From assembly GCF_049446115.1 (NCBI RefSeq), contig NZ_JBMSEC010000004.1, positions 66,954 to 130,953 of the forward strand: a stretch of DNA of 64,000 nucleotides, written 5' to 3'. How positions within the stretch are numbered: position 1 is the stretch's first letter; the number at the start of each line of letters is the position of its first letter. This document shows positions 3,510 to 14,580 of the stretch, piece by piece. This stretch comes from Caulobacter sp. KR2-114 (GTDB taxonomy: Bacteria; Pseudomonadota; Alphaproteobacteria; Caulobacterales; Caulobacteraceae). The position numbers and the translations under genes are program-made. The notes below the pieces were generated by a model that saw only the letters and a list, made by a program, of their open reading frames with translations, did no database searches and was not told the origin of the DNA.

Positions 3510-4370
3510 ATGACCGAAGCCACCGCCGCCGCCAACGCCGATCAGGCCGCCTATTGGAACCAGCAGGCGGGGCCGACTTGGGCCGCGATGCAGGAGATCA
3601 TGGACTGGCAGCTGGCGCCGCTGAGCCGCGCCGCCATCGACGCCCTGGCGCCCCGCGAGGGCGAGCACATCCTGGACATTGGCTGCGGCGCCGGAGCAAC
3701 CAGCCTGGACCTGGCCTGGCGCATCGACCCGGAAGGTTCGGTGCTGGGCGTCGACATCGCCGAGCCGCTGCTCGCGCTCGCCCGCGCCAGGGCCGACGCG
3801 GCCGGCTATCCGCAGGTGCGGTTCGCCCTGGGCGACGCCCAGACCCACGCCTTCGAGCCGGGCGCCTTCGACGCGGCGTTCTCGCGCTTCGGGGTAATGT
3901 TCTTCGCCGACCCGACCGCCGCCTTCCGCAACATCCGCCGGGCCCTGCGCCCCGGCGGCCGCCTGGCCTTCGTCTGCTGGCGCGCGATGGCGGACAATCC
4001 GCTGATGACCCTGCCGATGCAGGCGGCGGCCCCGGTGCTGGACGCCCCGGCCGCGCCGCCGGCCGATCCGCATGCGCCCGGACCGTTCGCCTTCGCCGAC
4101 GGCGAGCGGGTGCGGCGGATCCTCAGCGAGGCTGGCTTTGCCGACATCGCGGTCACGGCCCATGACGAGCGCATCGGCGCACGGACGCTGGACGACGCCC
4201 TGCAGACCGCCCTTCGGGTCGGCCCGCTGGGCCGGGCCCTGGCCAGCCAGCCGGATCGCCGCGACGCGGCGGTGTCGGCCGTGCGCGAGGCCCTCGCGGC
4301 GCATGCGGGGCCTGACGGCGTGCTGGTGCCCTCGGCCACCTGGATCGTCACCGCGCGGTCTCCCGACTGA
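3510..4370 (+). CDS. Class I SAM-dependent methyltransferase
   Basis: Motif I ILDIGCGAGATS and a typical Methyltransf_11/25 layout. Confidence 0.8.
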   Translation: MTEATAAANADQAAYWNQQAGPTWAAMQEIMDWQLAPLSRAAIDALAPREGEHILDIGCGAGATSLDLAWRIDPEGSVLGVDIAEPLLALARARADAAGYPQVRFALGDAQTHAFEPGAFDAAFSRFGVMFFADPTAAFRNIRRALRPGGRLAFVCWRAMADNPLMTLPMQAAAPVLDAPAAPPADPHAPGPFAFADGERVRRILSEAGFADIAVTAHDERIGARTLDDALQTALRVGPLGRALASQPDRRDAAVSAVREALAAHAGPDGVLVPSATWIVTARSPD

Positions 4371-5283: not shown

Positions 5284-6126
5284 TCAGACCCTGACGAACC
5301 GCAGGGTCATCCGGTCGCTCTCGCCGATCGCGTCGTACTTCGAGTGATCGAACGCCGGATTGGCCGGCTGGCCGTTGGGGGCGGACTGGCGTGTGGGCGG
5401 CAGGGTCCAGACGCCGAACGGATGGTCCTTGGTGTCCTTCGGGTTGGCGTTGACCTCCGAGCGGCCATCCAGGCGGAAGCCAGCCATCTTCGCCTGGTCG
5501 ATCACCCAGGCTTCGGAGACGTAGCCGGTTCCGGCCTTGGGGTCGGCGCCATCGGGCGCGCGATGGTCCTCGACCCCCATCAGGCCGCTGGGCTTCAGGG
5601 CGGCGTGGAAGTCGGCGAACGCCTTCTGGATGAAGCCATCGGCCCAGTTGTGCGTCTCGCGCGAGACGATCACCAGGTCGACGGTTCCGGGGGGCGCCAG
5701 CGGGCCCGACACCCGGCCGAACCCCGCTACTGTCACATCGCCATAGACGGCCTTGTCGGCGTACTTCGCCTCGAAGGCGGCGCGTCCCTGCCGCGCGGCG
5801 TCGGACAGCTTGGGATTGGCCAGGTCCGCGCCGGCGGCGATGTAGCGGCCATGGGTGGCGGCCAGGTAGGGCGCCAGGATGTCGGTCCACCAGCCGGTCC
5901 CCGGATTGACGTCGATCACCGTCATGCCCGGCTTCAGGCCCCAGAAGGTCAGGGTCTGGGCCGGATGGCGGAAGGCGTCGCGGGCCCGGTCCGCCGGCTT
6001 GCGGCGCGGATCGTCGATTGCCGCCTGCAGTCGCGGATCGATGGGCTGGGCCAGCACCCGCGGGGCGACGGCCAGGGTTGGCAGCGCAAGGCCGGCGGCG
6101 AGCACGGCGCGGCGGTCGAGCGACAT
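5284..6126 (-). CDS. Predicted periplasmic class I methyltransferase (COG4798-like) with Tat-type signal peptide
   Basis: MSLDRRAVLAAGLALPTLAVAPRVLA resembles a twin-arginine signal. MTase-like VIDVNPGTGWWT motif. RBS GGAGGAACTCCC precedes the ATG at 6126. Confidence 0.65.
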   Translation of the reverse strand: MSLDRRAVLAAGLALPTLAVAPRVLAQPIDPRLQAAIDDPRRKPADRARDAFRHPAQTLTFWGLKPGMTVIDVNPGTGWWTDILAPYLAATHGRYIAAGADLANPKLSDAARQGRAAFEAKYADKAVYGDVTVAGFGRVSGPLAPPGTVDLVIVSRETHNWADGFIQKAFADFHAALKPSGLMGVEDHRAPDGADPKAGTGYVSEAWVIDQAKMAGFRLDGRSEVNANPKDTKDHPFGVWTLPPTRQSAPNGQPANPAFDHSKYDAIGESDRMTLRFVRV

Positions 6127-6218
6127 GGGAGTTCCTCCGGTGGCGTCCTGTCTTTGGTCCAGCTTAGGCAAGGGCTCAGCCAGCGCGCCCCAGAAATTCT
6201 GCACGCCGGCGCAGGGGC

Positions 6219-7937
6219 TCAGCGCGGCGCGTGCAGCGCCCGCTCGGTCTCGCGCACATAGACCCGGTCGAACTCCTTCACGTCGTCGGCCAGGGCGTCG
6301 TACTCCACCAGCGAGGGATGGCGGCGCAGCGACTCATCCTTGCGCGGCGCATCGGTCCAGCGCCAGCCGTCCATGCGCCGCTGGGCGTTCCAGCGGTGAT
6401 GTTCGAGCCGCGCGAGCGCCTCACAGCCCTCTTCGTCCGTGAACAGATGATGGTCATCGCCCAGCAGCGGCATGCCGATCACACCGCGCCAGAGGGTGGG
6501 CGCGATCCCGGCGCTGGCCAGCTTCGCCGGGATGTGGGCCACGGCGTCACGGTTGGCCTGGCGGAAGGTTTCTTCCAGCTCGTCCCAGGGGCGCGCCGAG
6601 GTGTTCTTCGGGTCGTCGCGCACCTCCGGCGCCAGCGCGGCCCGGTAGGCGGCGCTGAAGCTGCGCGCCGCGGCGTCCGGCGTGCGCGACAGGAACTCGC
6701 TGGCGGCGAGGATCGCGTCGAGATCGCCGAACGGGGTCAGGGCGTCCAGGCCCCGCGCCTCGCCGTGATGCTCGCCCAGGGCGTTGGCGTCACGCAGACG
6801 CACGAAGATCGGCGCCCGGGCAATGCCCACCGAGCGAAGCATCGACTGCACCATGCCGGCGCTGGCCAGCACCGCCGCGTCCTCGGCCAGGCAGATGTAG
6901 GCCGCGGTCATCGGTCCGCCGGCCTGCACGATGCCGGTCAGGCTGGCGGCGTCCGGCTCGATGGCCTCGCTGGCGACCCGGCCGGCGACGAACACGAACT
7001 CGGCGCACTCGTCGATCTCCGGCGCGCGCAGGCGCATCACCCCTTCCAGGGCCCGGGCCTGGGGGTCGATCACGGTGATGCGCGGCTTTTCCAGATAGGT
7101 GGTGCGACAGTTGACGATCAGGTCGCGGGCGATGGCCTGGCCGGCCTGGCCGAAGCCGACGATCACCGCGTGGATGCGCTGGTGGCCGAAGGCGCGGGCC
7201 AGCAGGAAGGGGGGGTGCGCCTGGTGCAGGGCCCGGGCCGAGATCGCTGCGCGCGACAGCACCCGGGTGCGCGACTGGTTCAGGGTCGCGGCGGCGTCCT
7301 CCGCCAGCCGCGCGTCGCGCATCAGCACGGTGATGAAGGATCTCGGCGCGGCGGCCCTCGCCGCGCGCACCAGGGTCAGGGACAGGGCGTCGTCGGTGTT
7401 GCTGAGCAGCACGTGCTCGGCGTGGCGGCAGTGCTCGTACACCGCGCGGGCGGCGTCCTCCGGCGGCCAGGGCAGGGCGATGGCGCCCATGTTCGAGACG
7501 CCCAGGCTGGGCGCGCCCAGCCAGAGTACGCTGCGCCCCGAGCGGAACGCCTGGTCGAAGGCCTTGGTCGCCAGGGCGCCGGCGCCGATGACCACCACCT
7601 CCTGTTTGAGGAACCGCGCGGCGGCCAGGGCCAGCCGCTCCTGCAGCACCGCGGCCAGCGCCGTGCCGGCGGCGCCGAACACTGCCGCCAGACCCGTCCA
7701 GCGCCCCACCAGAATGCGCCAGTCGTGGGTCGGCGCGCCGCCGCCGTAGACGTCGTTGTAGGCGAACAGGGCGGCCGAGCGGTACAGGGAGTCGGCCACG
7801 GTCGCGCCGGTGTCGATCCAGGCGCGCAGCCCCAGCGCCAGGGTGACCATCACCAGGGTCGGGAGCAGCCACACGGCCCACAGCGAGATCAGGGTGCGCC
7901 GGCGGCCGCCGTGGTCGGTTGGCTTGGCCTCACTCAT
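6219..7937 (-). CDS. Membrane protein: 2 TM helices + two TrkA-N/RCK-like Rossmann domains + C-terminal RyR (ryanodine-receptor) domain
   Basis: Two N-terminal hydrophobic segments. Gly-rich dinucleotide-binding motifs VVVIGAGALATKA and VIVGFGQAGQAIARDL. C-terminus …ARLEHHRWNAQRRMDGWRWTDAPRKDESLRRHPSLVEYDALADDVKEFDRVYV matches the bacterial RyR-domain pattern. Starts 39 nt after the TIR gene stop. Confidence 0.7.
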   Translation of the reverse strand: MSEAKPTDHGGRRRTLISLWAVWLLPTLVMVTLALGLRAWIDTGATVADSLYRSAALFAYNDVYGGGAPTHDWRILVGRWTGLAAVFGAAGTALAAVLQERLALAAARFLKQEVVVIGAGALATKAFDQAFRSGRSVLWLGAPSLGVSNMGAIALPWPPEDAARAVYEHCRHAEHVLLSNTDDALSLTLVRAARAAAPRSFITVLMRDARLAEDAAATLNQSRTRVLSRAAISARALHQAHPPFLLARAFGHQRIHAVIVGFGQAGQAIARDLIVNCRTTYLEKPRITVIDPQARALEGVMRLRAPEIDECAEFVFVAGRVASEAIEPDAASLTGIVQAGGPMTAAYICLAEDAAVLASAGMVQSMLRSVGIARAPIFVRLRDANALGEHHGEARGLDALTPFGDLDAILAASEFLSRTPDAAARSFSAAYRAALAPEVRDDPKNTSARPWDELEETFRQANRDAVAHIPAKLASAGIAPTLWRGVIGMPLLGDDHHLFTDEEGCEALARLEHHRWNAQRRMDGWRWTDAPRKDESLRRHPSLVEYDALADDVKEFDRVYVRETERALHAPR

Positions 7938-7976
7938 CGCCGGACGTTCCGGATGGGCGGCCCATCGCCCCTGCCG

Positions 7977-9110
7977 TCAGTACGGGACGTCCGAGCGGCT
8001 GGCGCGCGACGGGGCGCCGGCGCCGGCGCCGGGGGTCTTGGGCTGGTGACGGCGGGCCGCCTTTTCCGCGGCCGCGGTGGCCGCAGCGCTGTCGCCTTCC
8101 TCGGGCGGCGCGGCCGTGGCGCCAGCGCCGGGCGCGGCGGCGCCAGGGGCGGCGGACGCTGCAGGGGCGGAGGACGCGGCCGGCGCAAGGGTCACGGTCG
8201 GGGTGGCGGCCGCGGCGCTGCTGGCCGGCGCGGCGGTACTGGCGGCGGCGGCCGACGAGCCGGACTTCGGGCCCAGCACGAACCATGCGGCGGCCGCGGC
8301 GGCGGCGACCACCACCACCAGGCCGATGATCAGCGGCAGGGGCGAGCCCTTCTTGCGCGCCGGCGCGGCGGCCGTGGGGGCCGGCGCAGGCTTTGGCGCG
8401 GGGGTCGGGATCGCCGCAGCCGGTTCAGGCGGGGACGCCACGGCCTCGACCGGCGGCGCAGGATCCGCTTCGGGCTCTCGCTCGTCCTCCACCGCCGGCG
8501 GCGCGGCGGGCCAGATGGCGACCGTTTCCGCCGGGGGCTCCGGGGGCGCCGCGGGCGCGACAGGTTCGGGCGCGACAGGTTCGGGGAGCGCCGCCTCAGG
8601 CGCTTGGACCTCGGGCGCGTGCGCCTCCGGCTCCGGCGCAGCCAGCTCAGGCGCTGCAGCGGGGGCCGCCACGCGGGCTGCGCCGGCCGCCTCGACCTCG
8701 CCGATCTCCTCCGGACCGAGCACGTTGGCGATCTGGGAGGCCAGGGCGTTCATCGCCAGCTCCCAGTCGGCGAAGAAGTCGATCCACTGCCGGGTGGCGA
8801 ACTCGTAGGCGAAGGCGTCGTTGGGCGCCACGTCCTCGATGCGCAGCGGCACCACGGTCAGCTTCTGCTGGCTGGCCAGGGCCAGTTCCTTGTTCATCTC
8901 CGCCGAATTGTTCGAGTTGGCGGTGAACACCAGCAGCATCAGCTTGGCCTTGCGGATCGCCCGCACGATGGCCACCTGGAAATTCTCCCCCGGGAGAATG
9001 TCCCGGCTGGAGATCCAGCACTTGAAGCCGCGTCCCTCCAGGGCCTGACAGAGCGTGTTCGCGACCTTGCGGTCCTGCGACGCGAAGCTGATGAAGATAC
9101 TGGCGCTCAT
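7977..9110 (-). CDS. TIR-domain protein with Pro/Glu/Ala-rich linker, single TM helix and Ala/Ser-rich C-terminal tail
   Basis: N-terminal IFISFASQDRKVANTLCQALEGRGFKCWISSRD…LMLLVFTANSNNSAEMNKELALA is a canonical TIR domain (FISxxxxD start, S-x6-EL catalytic-Glu motif). The linker carries PEAPA-type repeats. TM is PLPLIIGLVVVVAAAAAAAWFVLG. Confidence 0.8.
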   Translation of the reverse strand: MSASIFISFASQDRKVANTLCQALEGRGFKCWISSRDILPGENFQVAIVRAIRKAKLMLLVFTANSNNSAEMNKELALASQQKLTVVPLRIEDVAPNDAFAYEFATRQWIDFFADWELAMNALASQIANVLGPEEIGEVEAAGAARVAAPAAAPELAAPEPEAHAPEVQAPEAALPEPVAPEPVAPAAPPEPPAETVAIWPAAPPAVEDEREPEADPAPPVEAVASPPEPAAAIPTPAPKPAPAPTAAAPARKKGSPLPLIIGLVVVVAAAAAAAWFVLGPKSGSSAAAASTAAPASSAAAATPTVTLAPAASSAPAASAAPGAAAPGAGATAAPPEEGDSAAATAAAEKAARRHQPKTPGAGAGAPSRASRSDVPY

Positions 9111-9347
9111 GGAAAGTAGACGCGGCCCCGCCCGAAAACGGCGGCAGTTAAGCTAGAGCCGCGCGCGCGTTGCAAGTGCGAAGTGGTTTTGAGCGCATTT
9201 CGGCATTGGCGAAAACCGCGGCGTGTGCGTAATGGCGGAACAACGGTCGCCCGTCTGGGCAGCTGGCATCATCCACGTTTTACGGGCGGGACTTCTGCGG
9301 ATGGCGACCCTGGTTGCCCGTCGGCGGAAGCATCGAGGGAGTGGGAC

Positions 9348-12336: not shown

Positions 12337-12588
12337 AAGCCGCCTCCCTCGTGCTGTCGTTCGACGTTTCGCCGCACCCTGACCAGAGGCGGCCGCGCGT
12401 GTCGAGACTGACGTGGCGAGAGGCGACGATGGCTGCGGCCGACGGGCCAGGCGCGATACAGCGGGTTGCCGGCCCGGGGAAATCGATATATCTAATCGCC
12501 GATATATCGAAATATTTCAACACCGCTACAATTGCGGGTAGGGACTGGTGACACGCTGGGCTGGCGGTTCACCGGCGCCGCGCGCAGT

Positions 12589-14580
12589 ATGGCGGCCATA
12601 CCGCATACGGATTTCAAGATGCCGGATTCCACAGGCGCGCAGGGAGGCGCGCCCCCGCGTGAGGACGCTCGTCCGCCTGGCGAGCACGAGCAGCCGCTGG
12701 CTGAAAAGCCTCAGATCGACGTCAAGGCGATGCCCCGGGTGCTGCAGCGGATCACGGCCATGGCCGTCCGCCAGGAGCCCGGCCGGGTCGCCATCGCGAT
12801 CGCCTGTTCCCTGGGCGCAGCGATCGCCGGCCTGACGCTGCCGAAGCTGTTCGGCCACGCCGTCGACCAGGCCCAGGTGCTGCTGAAGGCCGTCGAGCAC
12901 GCCCGCCTGGCGCACATGGGCGCCAGCGAGATCGCCGCCCTGATGGGCCGCTCCAAGCACGCGCTGTGGATCTCCGCCCTGCTGGTCATCGTCGCCAGCT
13001 CCGCACGGGGCCTCCTGACCGGCTACGGCGGCTACCAGGGCGAGTACGTCAGCCAGACGGTGGCCTACCGCCTGCGGCTGGACTTCTTCCAGCAGCTGCA
13101 GCGCCTGTCGTTCGGCTTCCACGACAAGATCCACTCCGGCGACCTGATCACCCGCGGCATGCTCGACCTGGAGGGCACGCGGATGTTCATCCAGAACGGC
13201 ATGATGCAGTTCCTGACGCTGCTGCTGCTGCTGGCGGTCGCCACGGTGCAGATGGTGCGGGCCGACGCCACCATGGCGCTGCTGGGGCTGGCCTTCGTGC
13301 CGGTGGCCGCGTGGATCCTGGCGCGCATGGGCTTCCTGCTGCGGGTCACCTGGATGCGGGTGCAGGAGCTGATGAGCATCCTCACCCTCACCATGGAGGA
13401 GAACCTGCAGGGCATCCGCGTGGTGCGCGCCTTCGCGGCCACGCAGTTCGAGCTCGGCAAGTTCGACAAGGCCGCCAGCGAGGCCCTGAACCAGTCGTAC
13501 AAGCGCATCGTGCTGCGCTTCCGCTCGGTCTCGGCCATGACGCTCAGCTTCAACGCCTCGATGGCCGCGCTGCTCTGGTACGGCGGGCACAAGGTGGCGG
13601 CGGGCCAGATGACCGCCGGCCGGCTGACCGAGTTCCTGACCTACATGACCCTGCTGCAGGCGCCGATCCGGCAGATCGCCATGATCGTCATGGCCGCCGC
13701 CCGCGCCACCACCTGCGGCGGCCGGCTGTTCGAGATCCTCGATCAGCCCCCCGCCATCGCCGACAAGCCCGGTGCGCCGCCCCTGAAACCCACCGCCGGC
13801 CTGCTGCGCTTCGAGCACGTCGACTTTAGCTACGATCCCGGCAAGCCGATCCTGCACGACATCAGCTTCGAGGTCGGCCTGGGCAAGACCCTGGGCATCG
13901 TCGGCCCGCCCGGCAGCGGCAAGTCGACCATCGCCAACCTGATCCCGCGCTTCTACGACGTCACCGCCGGGCGCATCACCCTGGACGGCCAGGACATCCG
14001 CGACGTCACCCTGCCGTCCTTACGCGAATACATCGGCCTGGTGCAGCAGGAGGCCTTCCTGTTCGACTCCTCGGTGACCAACAACGTCGCCTATGCCGAT
14101 CCCTGGGCCGACGAGGACCGCATCACCGGCGCGGCCCGCACCGCCCAGATCCACGACTATATCGCCAGCCTCGCCGGCGGCTACGAGACGCGGGTCGGCG
14201 AGCGGGGCGTGGCCCTGTCGGGCGGCCAGCGCCAGCGGATGTCGATCGCCCGCGGCGTGGTGCCCGGCCCGGGGGTGATGATCTTCGACGACTCCACCGC
14301 CGCCATCGACGCGGTGACGGAAAAGAAGGTGCGCGACGCCCTGGCCGAGGCCACCCGCGCCAAGGCCACCATCATCATCGCCCACCGCCTCTCGTCGCTG
14401 ATGCACGCCGACGAGATCATCGTGCTGGAGGCGGGCCGCATCGTCGAACGCGGCACGCACGCCGAGCTGTTGGCGATGGGCGGCGAGTACGCCGACCTCT
14501 ACCAGCTGCAGACCCGCAGCGAGCAGGGCCTGTCGATCGCCGACGCCAAGCTGAAGCGCAAGATCGAGGAGGCGGTCTGA
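12589..14580 (+). CDS. ABC transporter, fused permease/ATP-binding subunit (MsbA-like exporter half), partner 1
   Basis: Six TM region, then Walker A GPPGSGKST, signature LSGGQRQR and Walker B IMIFDDSTAA. Start is ambiguous (ATG at 12532, 12589 or 12619). Confidence 0.85.
   Translation: MAAIPHTDFKMPDSTGAQGGAPPREDARPPGEHEQPLAEKPQIDVKAMPRVLQRITAMAVRQEPGRVAIAIACSLGAAIAGLTLPKLFGHAVDQAQVLLKAVEHARLAHMGASEIAALMGRSKHALWISALLVIVASSARGLLTGYGGYQGEYVSQTVAYRLRLDFFQQLQRLSFGFHDKIHSGDLITRGMLDLEGTRMFIQNGMMQFLTLLLLLAVATVQMVRADATMALLGLAFVPVAAWILARMGFLLRVTWMRVQELMSILTLTMEENLQGIRVVRAFAATQFELGKFDKAASEALNQSYKRIVLRFRSVSAMTLSFNASMAALLWYGGHKVAAGQMTAGRLTEFLTYMTLLQAPIRQIAMIVMAAARATTCGGRLFEILDQPPAIADKPGAPPLKPTAGLLRFEHVDFSYDPGKPILHDISFEVGLGKTLGIVGPPGSGKSTIANLIPRFYDVTAGRITLDGQDIRDVTLPSLREYIGLVQQEAFLFDSSVTNNVAYADPWADEDRITGAARTAQIHDYIASLAGGYETRVGERGVALSGGQRQRMSIARGVVPGPGVMIFDDSTAAIDAVTEKKVRDALAEATRAKATIIIAHRLSSLMHADEIIVLEAGRIVERGTHAELLAMGGEYADLYQLQTRSEQGLSIADAKLKRKIEEAV

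Follow-up and report, generated by a model that had tools for sequence, protein, structure and literature searches.

A membrane-anchored TIR protein and a predicted RCK-type channel homologue with a RyR domain: a candidate Thoeris-like module in Caulobacter

What might a membrane-anchored bacterial TIR protein signal to when its neighbour is a membrane protein that joins tandem RCK domains to a RyR domain, the ligand-binding repeat also found in animal ryanodine receptors? The question arises from a 64,000-nucleotide stretch of Caulobacter sp. KR2-114 (RefSeq assembly GCF_049446115.1, contig NZ_JBMSEC010000004.1, positions 66,954 to 130,953 of the forward strand; hereafter the window, in whose positions all coordinates are given unless a locus is named), in which two minus-strand genes, here called A and B, follow one another. 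An earlier note, made from the sequence alone, had proposed the two as a TIR cassette. We find that genes A and B are very probably coupled in function. We further suggest, with a confidence only a little better than even for the mechanism in full, that they form a Thoeris-like two-component TIR module, in which the RyR domain of gene B would sense an ADP-ribose (ADPR) signal made by the TIR protein and gate a channel. The proposal draws on what the domains are, on the conservation of catalytic and pocket residues, on homology to channels and to the phage protein RyDEP, and on gene linkage.

7977..9110, minus strand: gene A, membrane-anchored TIR protein, 377 aa (open reading frame, ORF; TIR_2 match; orthologues adjoin gene B relatives in many loci)
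7938..7976, minus strand: spacer between genes A and B, 39 nt, read from the sequence
6219..7937, minus strand: gene B, pore-like module with two transmembrane (TM) helices, tandem RCK and RyR, 572 aa (ORF; AlphaFold2 model; GsuK, MthK and TrkA matches)

Gene A precedes gene B, which begins 39 nt downstream, with no terminator-like hairpin between them on the minus strand; coordinates and sequence agree here with the two closely spaced same-strand ORFs described before. Gene A is the only TIR ORF in the window, as judged by an iterated TIR hidden Markov model run on six-frame ORFs.

The main argument for coupling comes from linkage in relatives. We compared 58 loci with gene B relatives (7 species-representative genomes, 44 metagenomes, several by exact look-up), the metagenomes being scanned with a 16-sequence alignment of the gene B family. 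TIR genes were detected by running the iterated TIR model on all six-frame ORFs; ten matches were checked with Pfam and others against precomputed Pfam annotations. In the 300 bp next to gene B relatives TIR ORFs reach a density of 7.8 per 10 kb; further out this drops to 0.1-0.33, which makes an enrichment of 25-75 times near the gene. Of the loci, 31 have 1.2 kb or more on either side, and among these a TIR ORF lies within 300 bp in 15, within 1.6 kb in 18 and within 7 kb in 21. Clustering of gene B at 50% identity gives ten lineages, six with a TIR gene in the locus, two without one despite adequate flanks and two that fall in neither class.

The arrangement of the pair varies. The TIR gene precedes gene B in tandem in a clade of ~80% identity (the window, L001, L011, L013), the two genes are convergent and abut in a clade of 55-63% identity (L003-5, L009, L016, L019, L023, L025 and others), gene B is followed by a large co-directional TIR gene in L039, L040 and L053, and the TIR gene is upstream or divergent in L038 and L058. 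The genes flanking the pairs fall into at least four unrelated contexts. Nor are the partner TIRs mutually orthologous: they comprise TIR-TM proteins (Caulobacteraceae, L035), TIR-TPR (L021, L038, L056), TIR-WD40 and TIR-nSTAND1-WD40 (L040), TIR-RHS (L053) and, in L058, a divergent ThsB_TIR plus a second TIR_2 beside an LRR-Roc-COR protein. Adjacency to these non-orthologous TIRs recurs at 27-39% gene B identity. Recurrence across TIR families, orientations and contexts argues for a functional connection. The earlier note had proposed co-localisation of homologues as a check on the pairing, and TIR genes do stand beside gene B relatives in at least six lineages (<50% identity), in three orientations and several contexts. 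Co-transcription, on the other hand, is not general to the pair: the tandem order and 39-nt gap hold in the window's clade, and the genes converge in the larger Caulobacteraceae clade.

Some partner loci are elaborate. L038:2055-4718, L039:4967-7090 and L040:8676-12782 each encode an N-terminal TIR domain, a predicted TM segment and then TPR, WD40 or an uncharacterised region of ~500 aa, which from hydropathy alone would give a transmembrane-receptor layout with cytoplasmic TIR, like that of a Toll-like receptor. In L040:1916-15609 a single gene B relative has three TIR genes around it: a TIR-DnaJ_C gene upstream, and genes for TIR-TM-WD40 (1369 aa) and TIR-nSTAND1-WD40 (952 aa) proteins downstream on the same strand. 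L058:1-9641, whose gene B relative is 39% identical, is defence-island-like, with its divergent ThsB_TIR (PF08937, 137 aa), the LRR-Roc-COR protein (948 aa), a TIR_2+Y4lF protein (340 aa) and a faint Nuc_deoxyrib_tr-like protein.

What, then, is gene B? By sequence profile and predicted structure it is a homologue of GsuK/MthK-type RCK-gated channels in which the filter is degenerate and a RyR domain has been added. Ahead of that domain it is laid out as follows.

7815..7895, minus strand: TM1, residues 15-41 (hydropathy; model helix 12-42; aligned to MthK/GsuK M1)
7722..7799, minus strand: pore-helix-like segment and degenerate filter loop, residues 47-72, VADSLYRSAALFAYNDVYGGG (model helix 47-58, then loop)
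7611..7721, minus strand: TM2, the inner-helix equivalent, residues 73-109 (hydropathy 80-98; model helix 73-109; conserved ARW motif)
7254..7604, minus strand: RCK1, residues 112-228 (relatives match TrkA_N; profile matches MthK and GsuK RCK domains)
6729..7178, minus strand: RCK2, residues 254-403, with conserved GxGxxG (G261, G263, G266) and D291

A profile of 73 diverse gene B family members matches GsuK (E=1e-15) and MthK (E=4e-13, profile positions 14-219 on MthK 22-228). Its N-terminal 235 residues alone match both (5.8e-7 and 2.9e-6, respectively) in an alignment that spans TM1, pore helix, TM2 and RCK1 and runs through MthK 23-221 and GsuK 25-231. The AlphaFold2 model (monomer, 57 homologues; mean predicted local distance difference test score, pLDDT, 88.5; predicted template-modelling score, pTM, 0.81) aligns to full-length GsuK over 509-551 columns in Foldseek. 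In the model TM1 (12-42) is followed by a short helix (47-58), a low-confidence loop and TM2 (73-109), and then by two alpha/beta domains (about 112-228 and 254-403), which correspond to the cytoplasmic RCK gating-ring domains of MthK and GsuK, and a helical C-terminal domain (422-569). The two TM helices reported before are borne out, hydropathy placing hydrophobic helices at residues 15-41 and 80-98 in agreement with the model. The generic membrane-perturbing effector of the earlier note gives way to a two-TM RCK-gated channel homologue with a degenerate selectivity filter. The family is large: 4078 representatives match at E<=1e-3, of which 113 reach E<=1e-30, and a good number are full length at 28-43% identity.

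The pore helix is retained, the family's 'DALYRSL..L-sdtY' overlying MthK 'SLYWTFVTIATVGYGDY'. The T-V-G-Y-G filter of K+ channels is absent from the family: in the profile alignment to MthK there is no GYG, and the segment that replaces it is two residues shorter. The window protein reads LFAYNDVYGGG in this region, which is modelled at a pLDDT of ~56. Two residues of the module, Y64 in the filter loop and R79 in the ARW motif of TM2, are conserved in at least 90% of the family. As for the two TrkA-N/RCK domains claimed before, both stand at the level of family profile and structure, and relatives score above threshold for TrkA_N in RCK1; the window protein itself has no significant TrkA_N match, with only NAD_binding_7 (E=0.0076) and NAD_binding_9 (E=0.02) found, both under the cut-off. 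The two dinucleotide-binding motifs of the form GxGxxA/G assigned to these domains fare differently: that of RCK2 (GxGxxG...D; G261/G263/G266/D291) is near-universal in the family, and in RCK1 the GAGALA of the window protein is not shared by the family, whose consensus reads 'VVIGDxxxA' with G118 as the sole invariant residue.

The family also has longer variants (P0336; P0315, P0326, P0343, P0354; loci L048-L052). One of 1298 aa has TrkA_N and five RyR repeats. Others of ~800 aa have a C-terminal extension of ~240 aa past the RyR domain that matches no Pfam family; these have no TIR gene nearby, and Phe at the position of filter-loop Y64.

The RyR domain is where we would place reception of the TIR signal.

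6231..6605, minus strand: RyR/Repeat12-like domain, residues 445-569 (Pfam RyR; family profile; hhalign to RyDEP)
6399-6401, 6390-6392, 6318-6320 and 6267-6269, minus strand: pocket codons for H513, W516, H540 and D557, in that order (alignment to RyDEP)

Gene B matches Pfam RyR (PF02026) with E=1.8e-9 and 38.1 bits, above the gathering cut-off of 27.4, as had been claimed for its C-terminus, and the family profile matches the repeats of RyR1-3 at E~1e-36. Relatives of this domain have recently been characterised in phages. RyDEP (mycobacteriophage DyoEdafos gp78, PF02026) is a glycosidase acting on cyclic ADPR (cADPR) isomers, in which W78 stacks on the adenine, H100 contacts the phosphates, and H75 and D117 form the catalytic dyad; most of its homologues are nM-affinity sponges that do not cleave the ligand (Lopez Rivera et al., 2026; PMC13232231). 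RyR Tad (Pectobacterium phage CB1 gp68) binds 3'cADPR with a dissociation constant (Kd) of 43 nM, and also 2'cADPR and cADPR, through H129/W132, H154 and D171 (10.64898/2026.06.04.730250). In Repeat12 of animal RyRs the equivalent residues bind ATP/ADP (PMC13232231). We aligned RyDEP (MN234187.1 gene 78, L059:4664-5080) to the gene B family with hhalign (probability 96.8%, E=2.2e-10), which equates H75 with H513, W78 with W516, H100 with H540 and D117 with D557. H513 is invariant and the other three are at least 90% conserved among the 73 diverse members, and all are kept in every locus examined. The gene B C-terminus also structurally resembles the phage RyR-domain proteins. Because PF02026 proteins bind or cleave cADPR isomers, and gene B retains the four ligand and catalytic residues, the RyR domain is on sequence grounds the likeliest sensor of the TIR product, in preference to the Rossmann/RCK domains to which the role had first been given. 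A tblastn search of 50,697 phage genomes with the gene B RyR domain returned no match, and in viral contigs the gene B family is all but missing, which marks it as a host component and not an anti-defence sponge.

The presumed source of the signal, gene A, has these parts.

8751..9098, minus strand: TIR_2 domain, residues 5-120, predicted cytoplasmic (PF13676, PF01582)
8886..8888, minus strand: codon of E75, putative catalytic Glu (NKEL; alignment, codon checked)
8352..8705, minus strand: Pro/Ala/Glu-rich low-complexity linker, residues 136-253, about 115 residues (A 33%, P 28%, E 15%)
8262..8351, minus strand: single TM helix region, residues 254-283, with ARKKGS just before it (hydropathy peak 2.72)
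7980..8261, minus strand: Ala/Ser/Pro-rich C-terminal tail, residues 284-377, predicted extracytoplasmic (composition)

The N-terminal TIR domain with an intact catalytic-Glu motif, as first reported, is upheld by matches to TIR_2 (PF13676; E=1e-25, 91 bits against a cut-off of 28) and TIR (PF01582; E=2e-7, 31 bits). E75 lines up with the 'LKEL' Glu of SPARTA TIR-APAZ, and a Glu at this position is invariant in the TIR ORFs that adjoin gene B relatives (33/33). Among gene A orthologues the linker keeps its composition and varies in length. The predicted topology follows from the positive-inside rule. A TM segment is predicted after the TIR domain in nearly all partner TIRs, TIR-TPR and TIR-WD40 proteins included, and both window proteins, described before as membrane-anchored, are predicted to be inner-membrane proteins, by hydropathy and for gene B also by the AlphaFold2 model. 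The TIR domain is the better conserved of the two partners: in pairs of orthologous loci its identity is 95, 79, 81 and 77%, against 80, 63, 58 and 58% for gene B.

From these parts we suggest the following mechanism. The inner membrane would anchor gene A and leave its TIR domain in the cytoplasm, where upon activation it would convert NAD+ to an ADPR-derived signal, most plausibly a cADPR isomer. Gene B, by analogy with GsuK and MthK, would assemble as a tetramer with a gating ring of eight RCK domains, and H513, W516, H540 and D557 of its RyR/Repeat12 domain would form the pocket that holds the TIR product; occupancy of this pocket would then act through the tandem-RCK ring to open the pore. 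As the K+ selectivity filter is missing, this pore is probably cation-non-selective. Ion flux and membrane depolarisation may result, and with them arrested growth or abortive infection, or the ion flux may be a physiological response; RCK2 probably binds NAD+, ADP or ATP as a second input, as in GsuK. An anti-phage role, the identity of the signal and channel activity are parts of the proposal that we infer. A more specific version, in which gene B is a cation channel opened directly by a TIR-made cADPR isomer at its Repeat12-type domain (a 'cADPR-gated RyR-domain channel') and the TIR partners, with a cytoplasmic TIR, one TM helix and an extracytoplasmic tail or TPR/WD40 domain, are transmembrane receptors laid out much as Toll-like receptors are, we put forward tentatively, judging the odds to lie somewhat against it.

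Several observations weigh against this proposal. Roughly one in three of the gene B lineages whose flanks are adequate has no TIR gene nearby (L006, L007, L022, L041/44, L052, L055), and no consistent substitute partner was found in the TIR-less loci, whose neighbours are heterogeneous. An alternative signal generator was sought there and rejected, the neighbours being a dTDP-sugar epimerase, an IS66 transposase, a LacI regulator, an ABC-2 permease and unknowns. Linkage is also weak in the reciprocal direction: TIR homologues at 58-74% identity to that of gene A occur without gene B alongside, so the idea of a TIR subfamily exclusive to gene B was discarded. The pocket residues are equally conserved in the TIR-less gene B lineages, which, with the binding of ATP/ADP by animal Repeat12, means that the ligand could be an ordinary adenine nucleotide; loss of these residues in TIR-less lineages, considered as a possible tie to TIR products, was set aside as uninformative, since they are conserved everywhere. 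The filter region is degenerate and modelled at low confidence, and conduction is therefore a prediction from channel homology. The pair is convergent in most Caulobacteraceae and so does not form one operon there. The surroundings in the window are housekeeping-like and not a defence island, synteny within clades such as the Caulobacteraceae is vertical, and conservation of the TIR domain at 77-95% is unlike that typical of fast-evolving phage sensors. Finally, the mechanism is for every family member a prediction from sequence and gene linkage.

The loci in which gene A-type TIRs occur without gene B are of interest in themselves. In L066:2948-7083 a TIR 73% identical to gene A adjoins an SGNH/GDSL orthologue, as in the window though inverted, and is preceded by a 618-aa protein without Pfam match that is unrelated to gene B. 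Gene A-type TIRs of 58-65% identity have other neighbours: an overlapping 224-aa unknown ORF in L067:4327-5735, a second TIR_2 protein (430 aa) in L068:5001-7953 and a 1023-aa SMC_N/AAA_21 protein in L069:1754-5633. These loci suggest that partners around this TIR type are swappable. A TIR homologue of 63% identity without a TM segment lies between IS3-family transposase gene pairs in L008:106-5477, and because these pairs bracket it the copy looks mobile. In L010:10016-15704 a gene B relative without an adjacent TIR is followed downstream by genes of Sf6-type terminase-like and SRAP kind, perhaps left by a prophage, and a divergent TIR_2 gene lies 6.2 kb from it.

The housekeeping-like surroundings, the vertical synteny and the very high conservation of the TIR domain are what would be expected if the same mechanism served a physiological role, for example ion flux under envelope or osmotic stress in Caulobacteraceae, with the TM helix and tail of the TIR protein sensing the envelope. 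In keeping with this, the TIR partner has a TM helix and a predicted extracytoplasmic tail and no recognisable phage-sensing domain. The enrichment in defence islands raised in the earlier note is likewise not seen in the window and its clade, which have housekeeping neighbours and generic PADLOC matches; only some distant loci (L040, L058) are island-like. Against a housekeeping role, distant members pair with immune-type TIRs (STAND, TPR, WD40, several TIRs per locus, ThsB_TIR with an LRR-Roc-COR neighbour), and every bacterial TIR signalling system characterised so far is anti-phage (10.64898/2025.12.03.692087). We regard a purely physiological role as unlikely, though a serious contender.

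A second alternative moves the site of sensing. The TIR protein would act as an NADase, or as the maker of a product, that is read by RCK2, which gates the channel, and the RyR domain would serve in dimerisation or sense ATP. RCK2 keeps its dinucleotide motif, and GsuK of Geobacter sulfurreducens is activated by NAD+ and ADP (PMC3510474), which gives RCK2 sensing some plausibility. It leaves unexplained, however, the invariable fusion of a RyR domain with all four cADPR-contact residues, and ordinary regulators of K+ transport often have RCK nucleotide sites without any linkage to TIRs. As an explanation in place of RyR sensing we consider it improbable; it is compatible with RyR sensing, since both sites may serve.

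A third would have the gene B RyR domain, as a RyDEP-like glycosidase or sponge, remove the cADPR isomers made by gene A, setting a threshold or ending signalling, perhaps to protect against autoimmunity, with the effector elsewhere or with NAD+ depletion by the TIR protein as the effect. RyDEP-family proteins are proven degraders and sponges of such signals (PMC13232231), and the RyDEP dyad H75 and D117 is kept as H513 and D557. Non-cleaving sponges retain the same residues, however (PMC13232231; H129/W132/H154/D171 in RyR Tad, 10.64898/2026.06.04.730250), so their conservation does not imply catalysis. A buffer would moreover have no need of a conserved two-TM pore module and a tandem RCK ring, and the examined neighbourhoods contain no other conserved candidate effector. 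This reading seems to us more improbable still. That gene B is an ordinary nucleotide-regulated cation channel whose TIR neighbour merely reflects inherited synteny, as the TIR-less gene B lineages, the occurrence of the gene A TIR subfamily without gene B and the often convergent genes might suggest, is very improbable given that the adjacency survives inversions and unrelated flanks, recurs with non-orthologous TIRs at 27-39% gene B identity and comes with the 25-75 times enrichment of TIR ORFs within 300 bp.

Sensing of a TIR product by the RyR domain of gene B thus stays our preferred reading, and its nearest counterparts are the Thoeris systems. A recent survey recognised Thoeris types I-XI, with 29 putative types of which V-XI were validated (Yirmiya et al., bioRxiv 2025; 10.64898/2025.12.03.692087). 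These systems, above all type X and the membrane-effector types II, V and VII, set a TIR with a catalytic Glu beside a nucleotide-signal-binding domain fused to a membrane-acting module, as does the pair described here with its putative sensor; Thoeris effectors are swapped modularly around TIRs, and several TIRs may occur per locus, as in L040 and L058. Type X is the closest in description, combining a ThsB-type TIR (cluster 2598792572) with a 'predicted ion channel', ThsK, whose signal was not identified in that study (10.64898/2025.12.03.692087). The type X TIR is of the ThsB/PF08937 type (Vibrio, Bacillus), whereas gene A is a TIR_2 protein with a TM anchor, and the window locus, in contrast to Thoeris, lies outside a defence island and has genes that are convergent in most relatives. 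The ThsB_TIR of L058 matches the type X TIR only weakly (E=0.038). Used as a query, the type X TIR found only type II (TIR + macro) loci among plasmids by tblastn, and none in the viral-contig scan. Gene B matches no Thoeris effector model in PADLOC or NCBIfam, the former giving only a spurious E1-E2 match (E=0.0038) and the latter none. RyR, TrkA and RCK are not named in the text of the survey or in the part of its tables examined, and the TIR motifs of gene A are likewise absent from that part of the tables (10.64898/2025.12.03.692087). Gene B and ThsK are compared here by description, and if ThsK proves homologous, gene B would be a new member of type X.

We found no prior description in the literature of a family of RyR-RCK channels associated with TIRs. 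The pairing had been called undescribed; this holds for the gene B family in the literature searched, and has to be qualified in that a TIR with an 'ion channel' is known as Thoeris type X. We conclude that the TIR and RyR-RCK-channel pair is probably a previously undescribed, Thoeris-like module with a new effector.

Other comparisons bear on gene B. With GsuK and MthK it shares TM1, pore helix, TM2 and RCK, by profile and by structure, and with GsuK also two tandem RCK domains per subunit, RCK2 of gene B having the nucleotide-binding motif; in contrast to both, it lacks TVGYG, carries an extra C-terminal RyR domain and has TIR genes as genomic partners. Phage RyDEP and RyR Tad share with it PF02026 and the H..W, H and D pocket residues, but are small soluble dimers that counter host signalling, whereas gene B belongs to the host and joins the domain to a channel; the presumed role of the domain is signal reception in gene B and evasion in the phage proteins. 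The animal RyR is reminiscent of gene B in bearing a Repeat12-type nucleotide-binding domain on a cation channel, and gene B is also genetically coupled to a putative cADPR-type producer. Their pores are unrelated, however, with six TM helices in the animal RyR and an MthK-like two-TM pore in gene B, and tandem repeat pairs stand against a single repeat; nothing that we see points to a shared ancestor for the channel as a whole. CASTOR/POLLUX channels of the plant nuclear envelope (PDB 6o6j) resemble gene B only in the RCK ring, being eukaryotic and Ca2+-regulated, without RyR domain and without TIR link.

Bacteria, plants and animals all use TIR-derived ADPR signals as an immune currency, for which few receptor domains are known: SLOG, Macro, a caspase-like effector, DUF2270, DUF6650 and SLATT. 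Binding of TIR signals by RyR/Repeat12 domains was shown in 2026 in phage counter-defence proteins only, with the cellular role left open. In the gene B family a RyR domain belongs to the host, where it is joined to an MthK/GsuK-type channel and genetically coupled to TIRs; the family is thereby a candidate for a new class of receptor-effector. If the proposal is true, the host function from which the phage RyDEP and RyR Tad sponges derive is identified, and a simple system becomes available in which to ask whether Repeat12 couples cADPR-type ligands to a channel gate, long debated for animal RyRs. The membrane-anchored TIR partners with predicted extracytoplasmic TPR or WD40 regions suggest in addition that some TIR signalling is triggered outside the cytoplasm.

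The pair is flanked in the window by a methyltransferase (MTase)-like ORF with a weak match and a Tat-like signal, a ParA/CbiA ATPase and a GDSL/SGNH hydrolase; the Pfam scan here matches the flanking genes named before. No defence-related gene was recognised among these flanks. PADLOC reports two window genes, a SAM-methyltransferase at 3510-4370 on the plus strand as mad2 (E=7e-26) and an ABC transporter at 12532-14580 on the plus strand as mad3 (E=8e-22), which look like generic domain similarity and not a MADS defence system. An ORF of 962 aa at 6231-9119 on the plus strand, antisense to both genes and covering them, was dismissed as an artefact of high-GC DNA (~74% GC), its product being Arg/Gly-rich. 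The MTase-like ORF (5284-6204, minus strand) has a Tat-type signal, MSLDRRAVLAAGLALPTLAVAP..., and methyltransferase Pfam matches that fall under the cut-off. Its synteny is confined to the ~80% identity clade (L001, L002), and it lies outside the conserved pair; being on the same strand, with its start 14 nt past the gene B stop, it may be co-transcribed with gene B.

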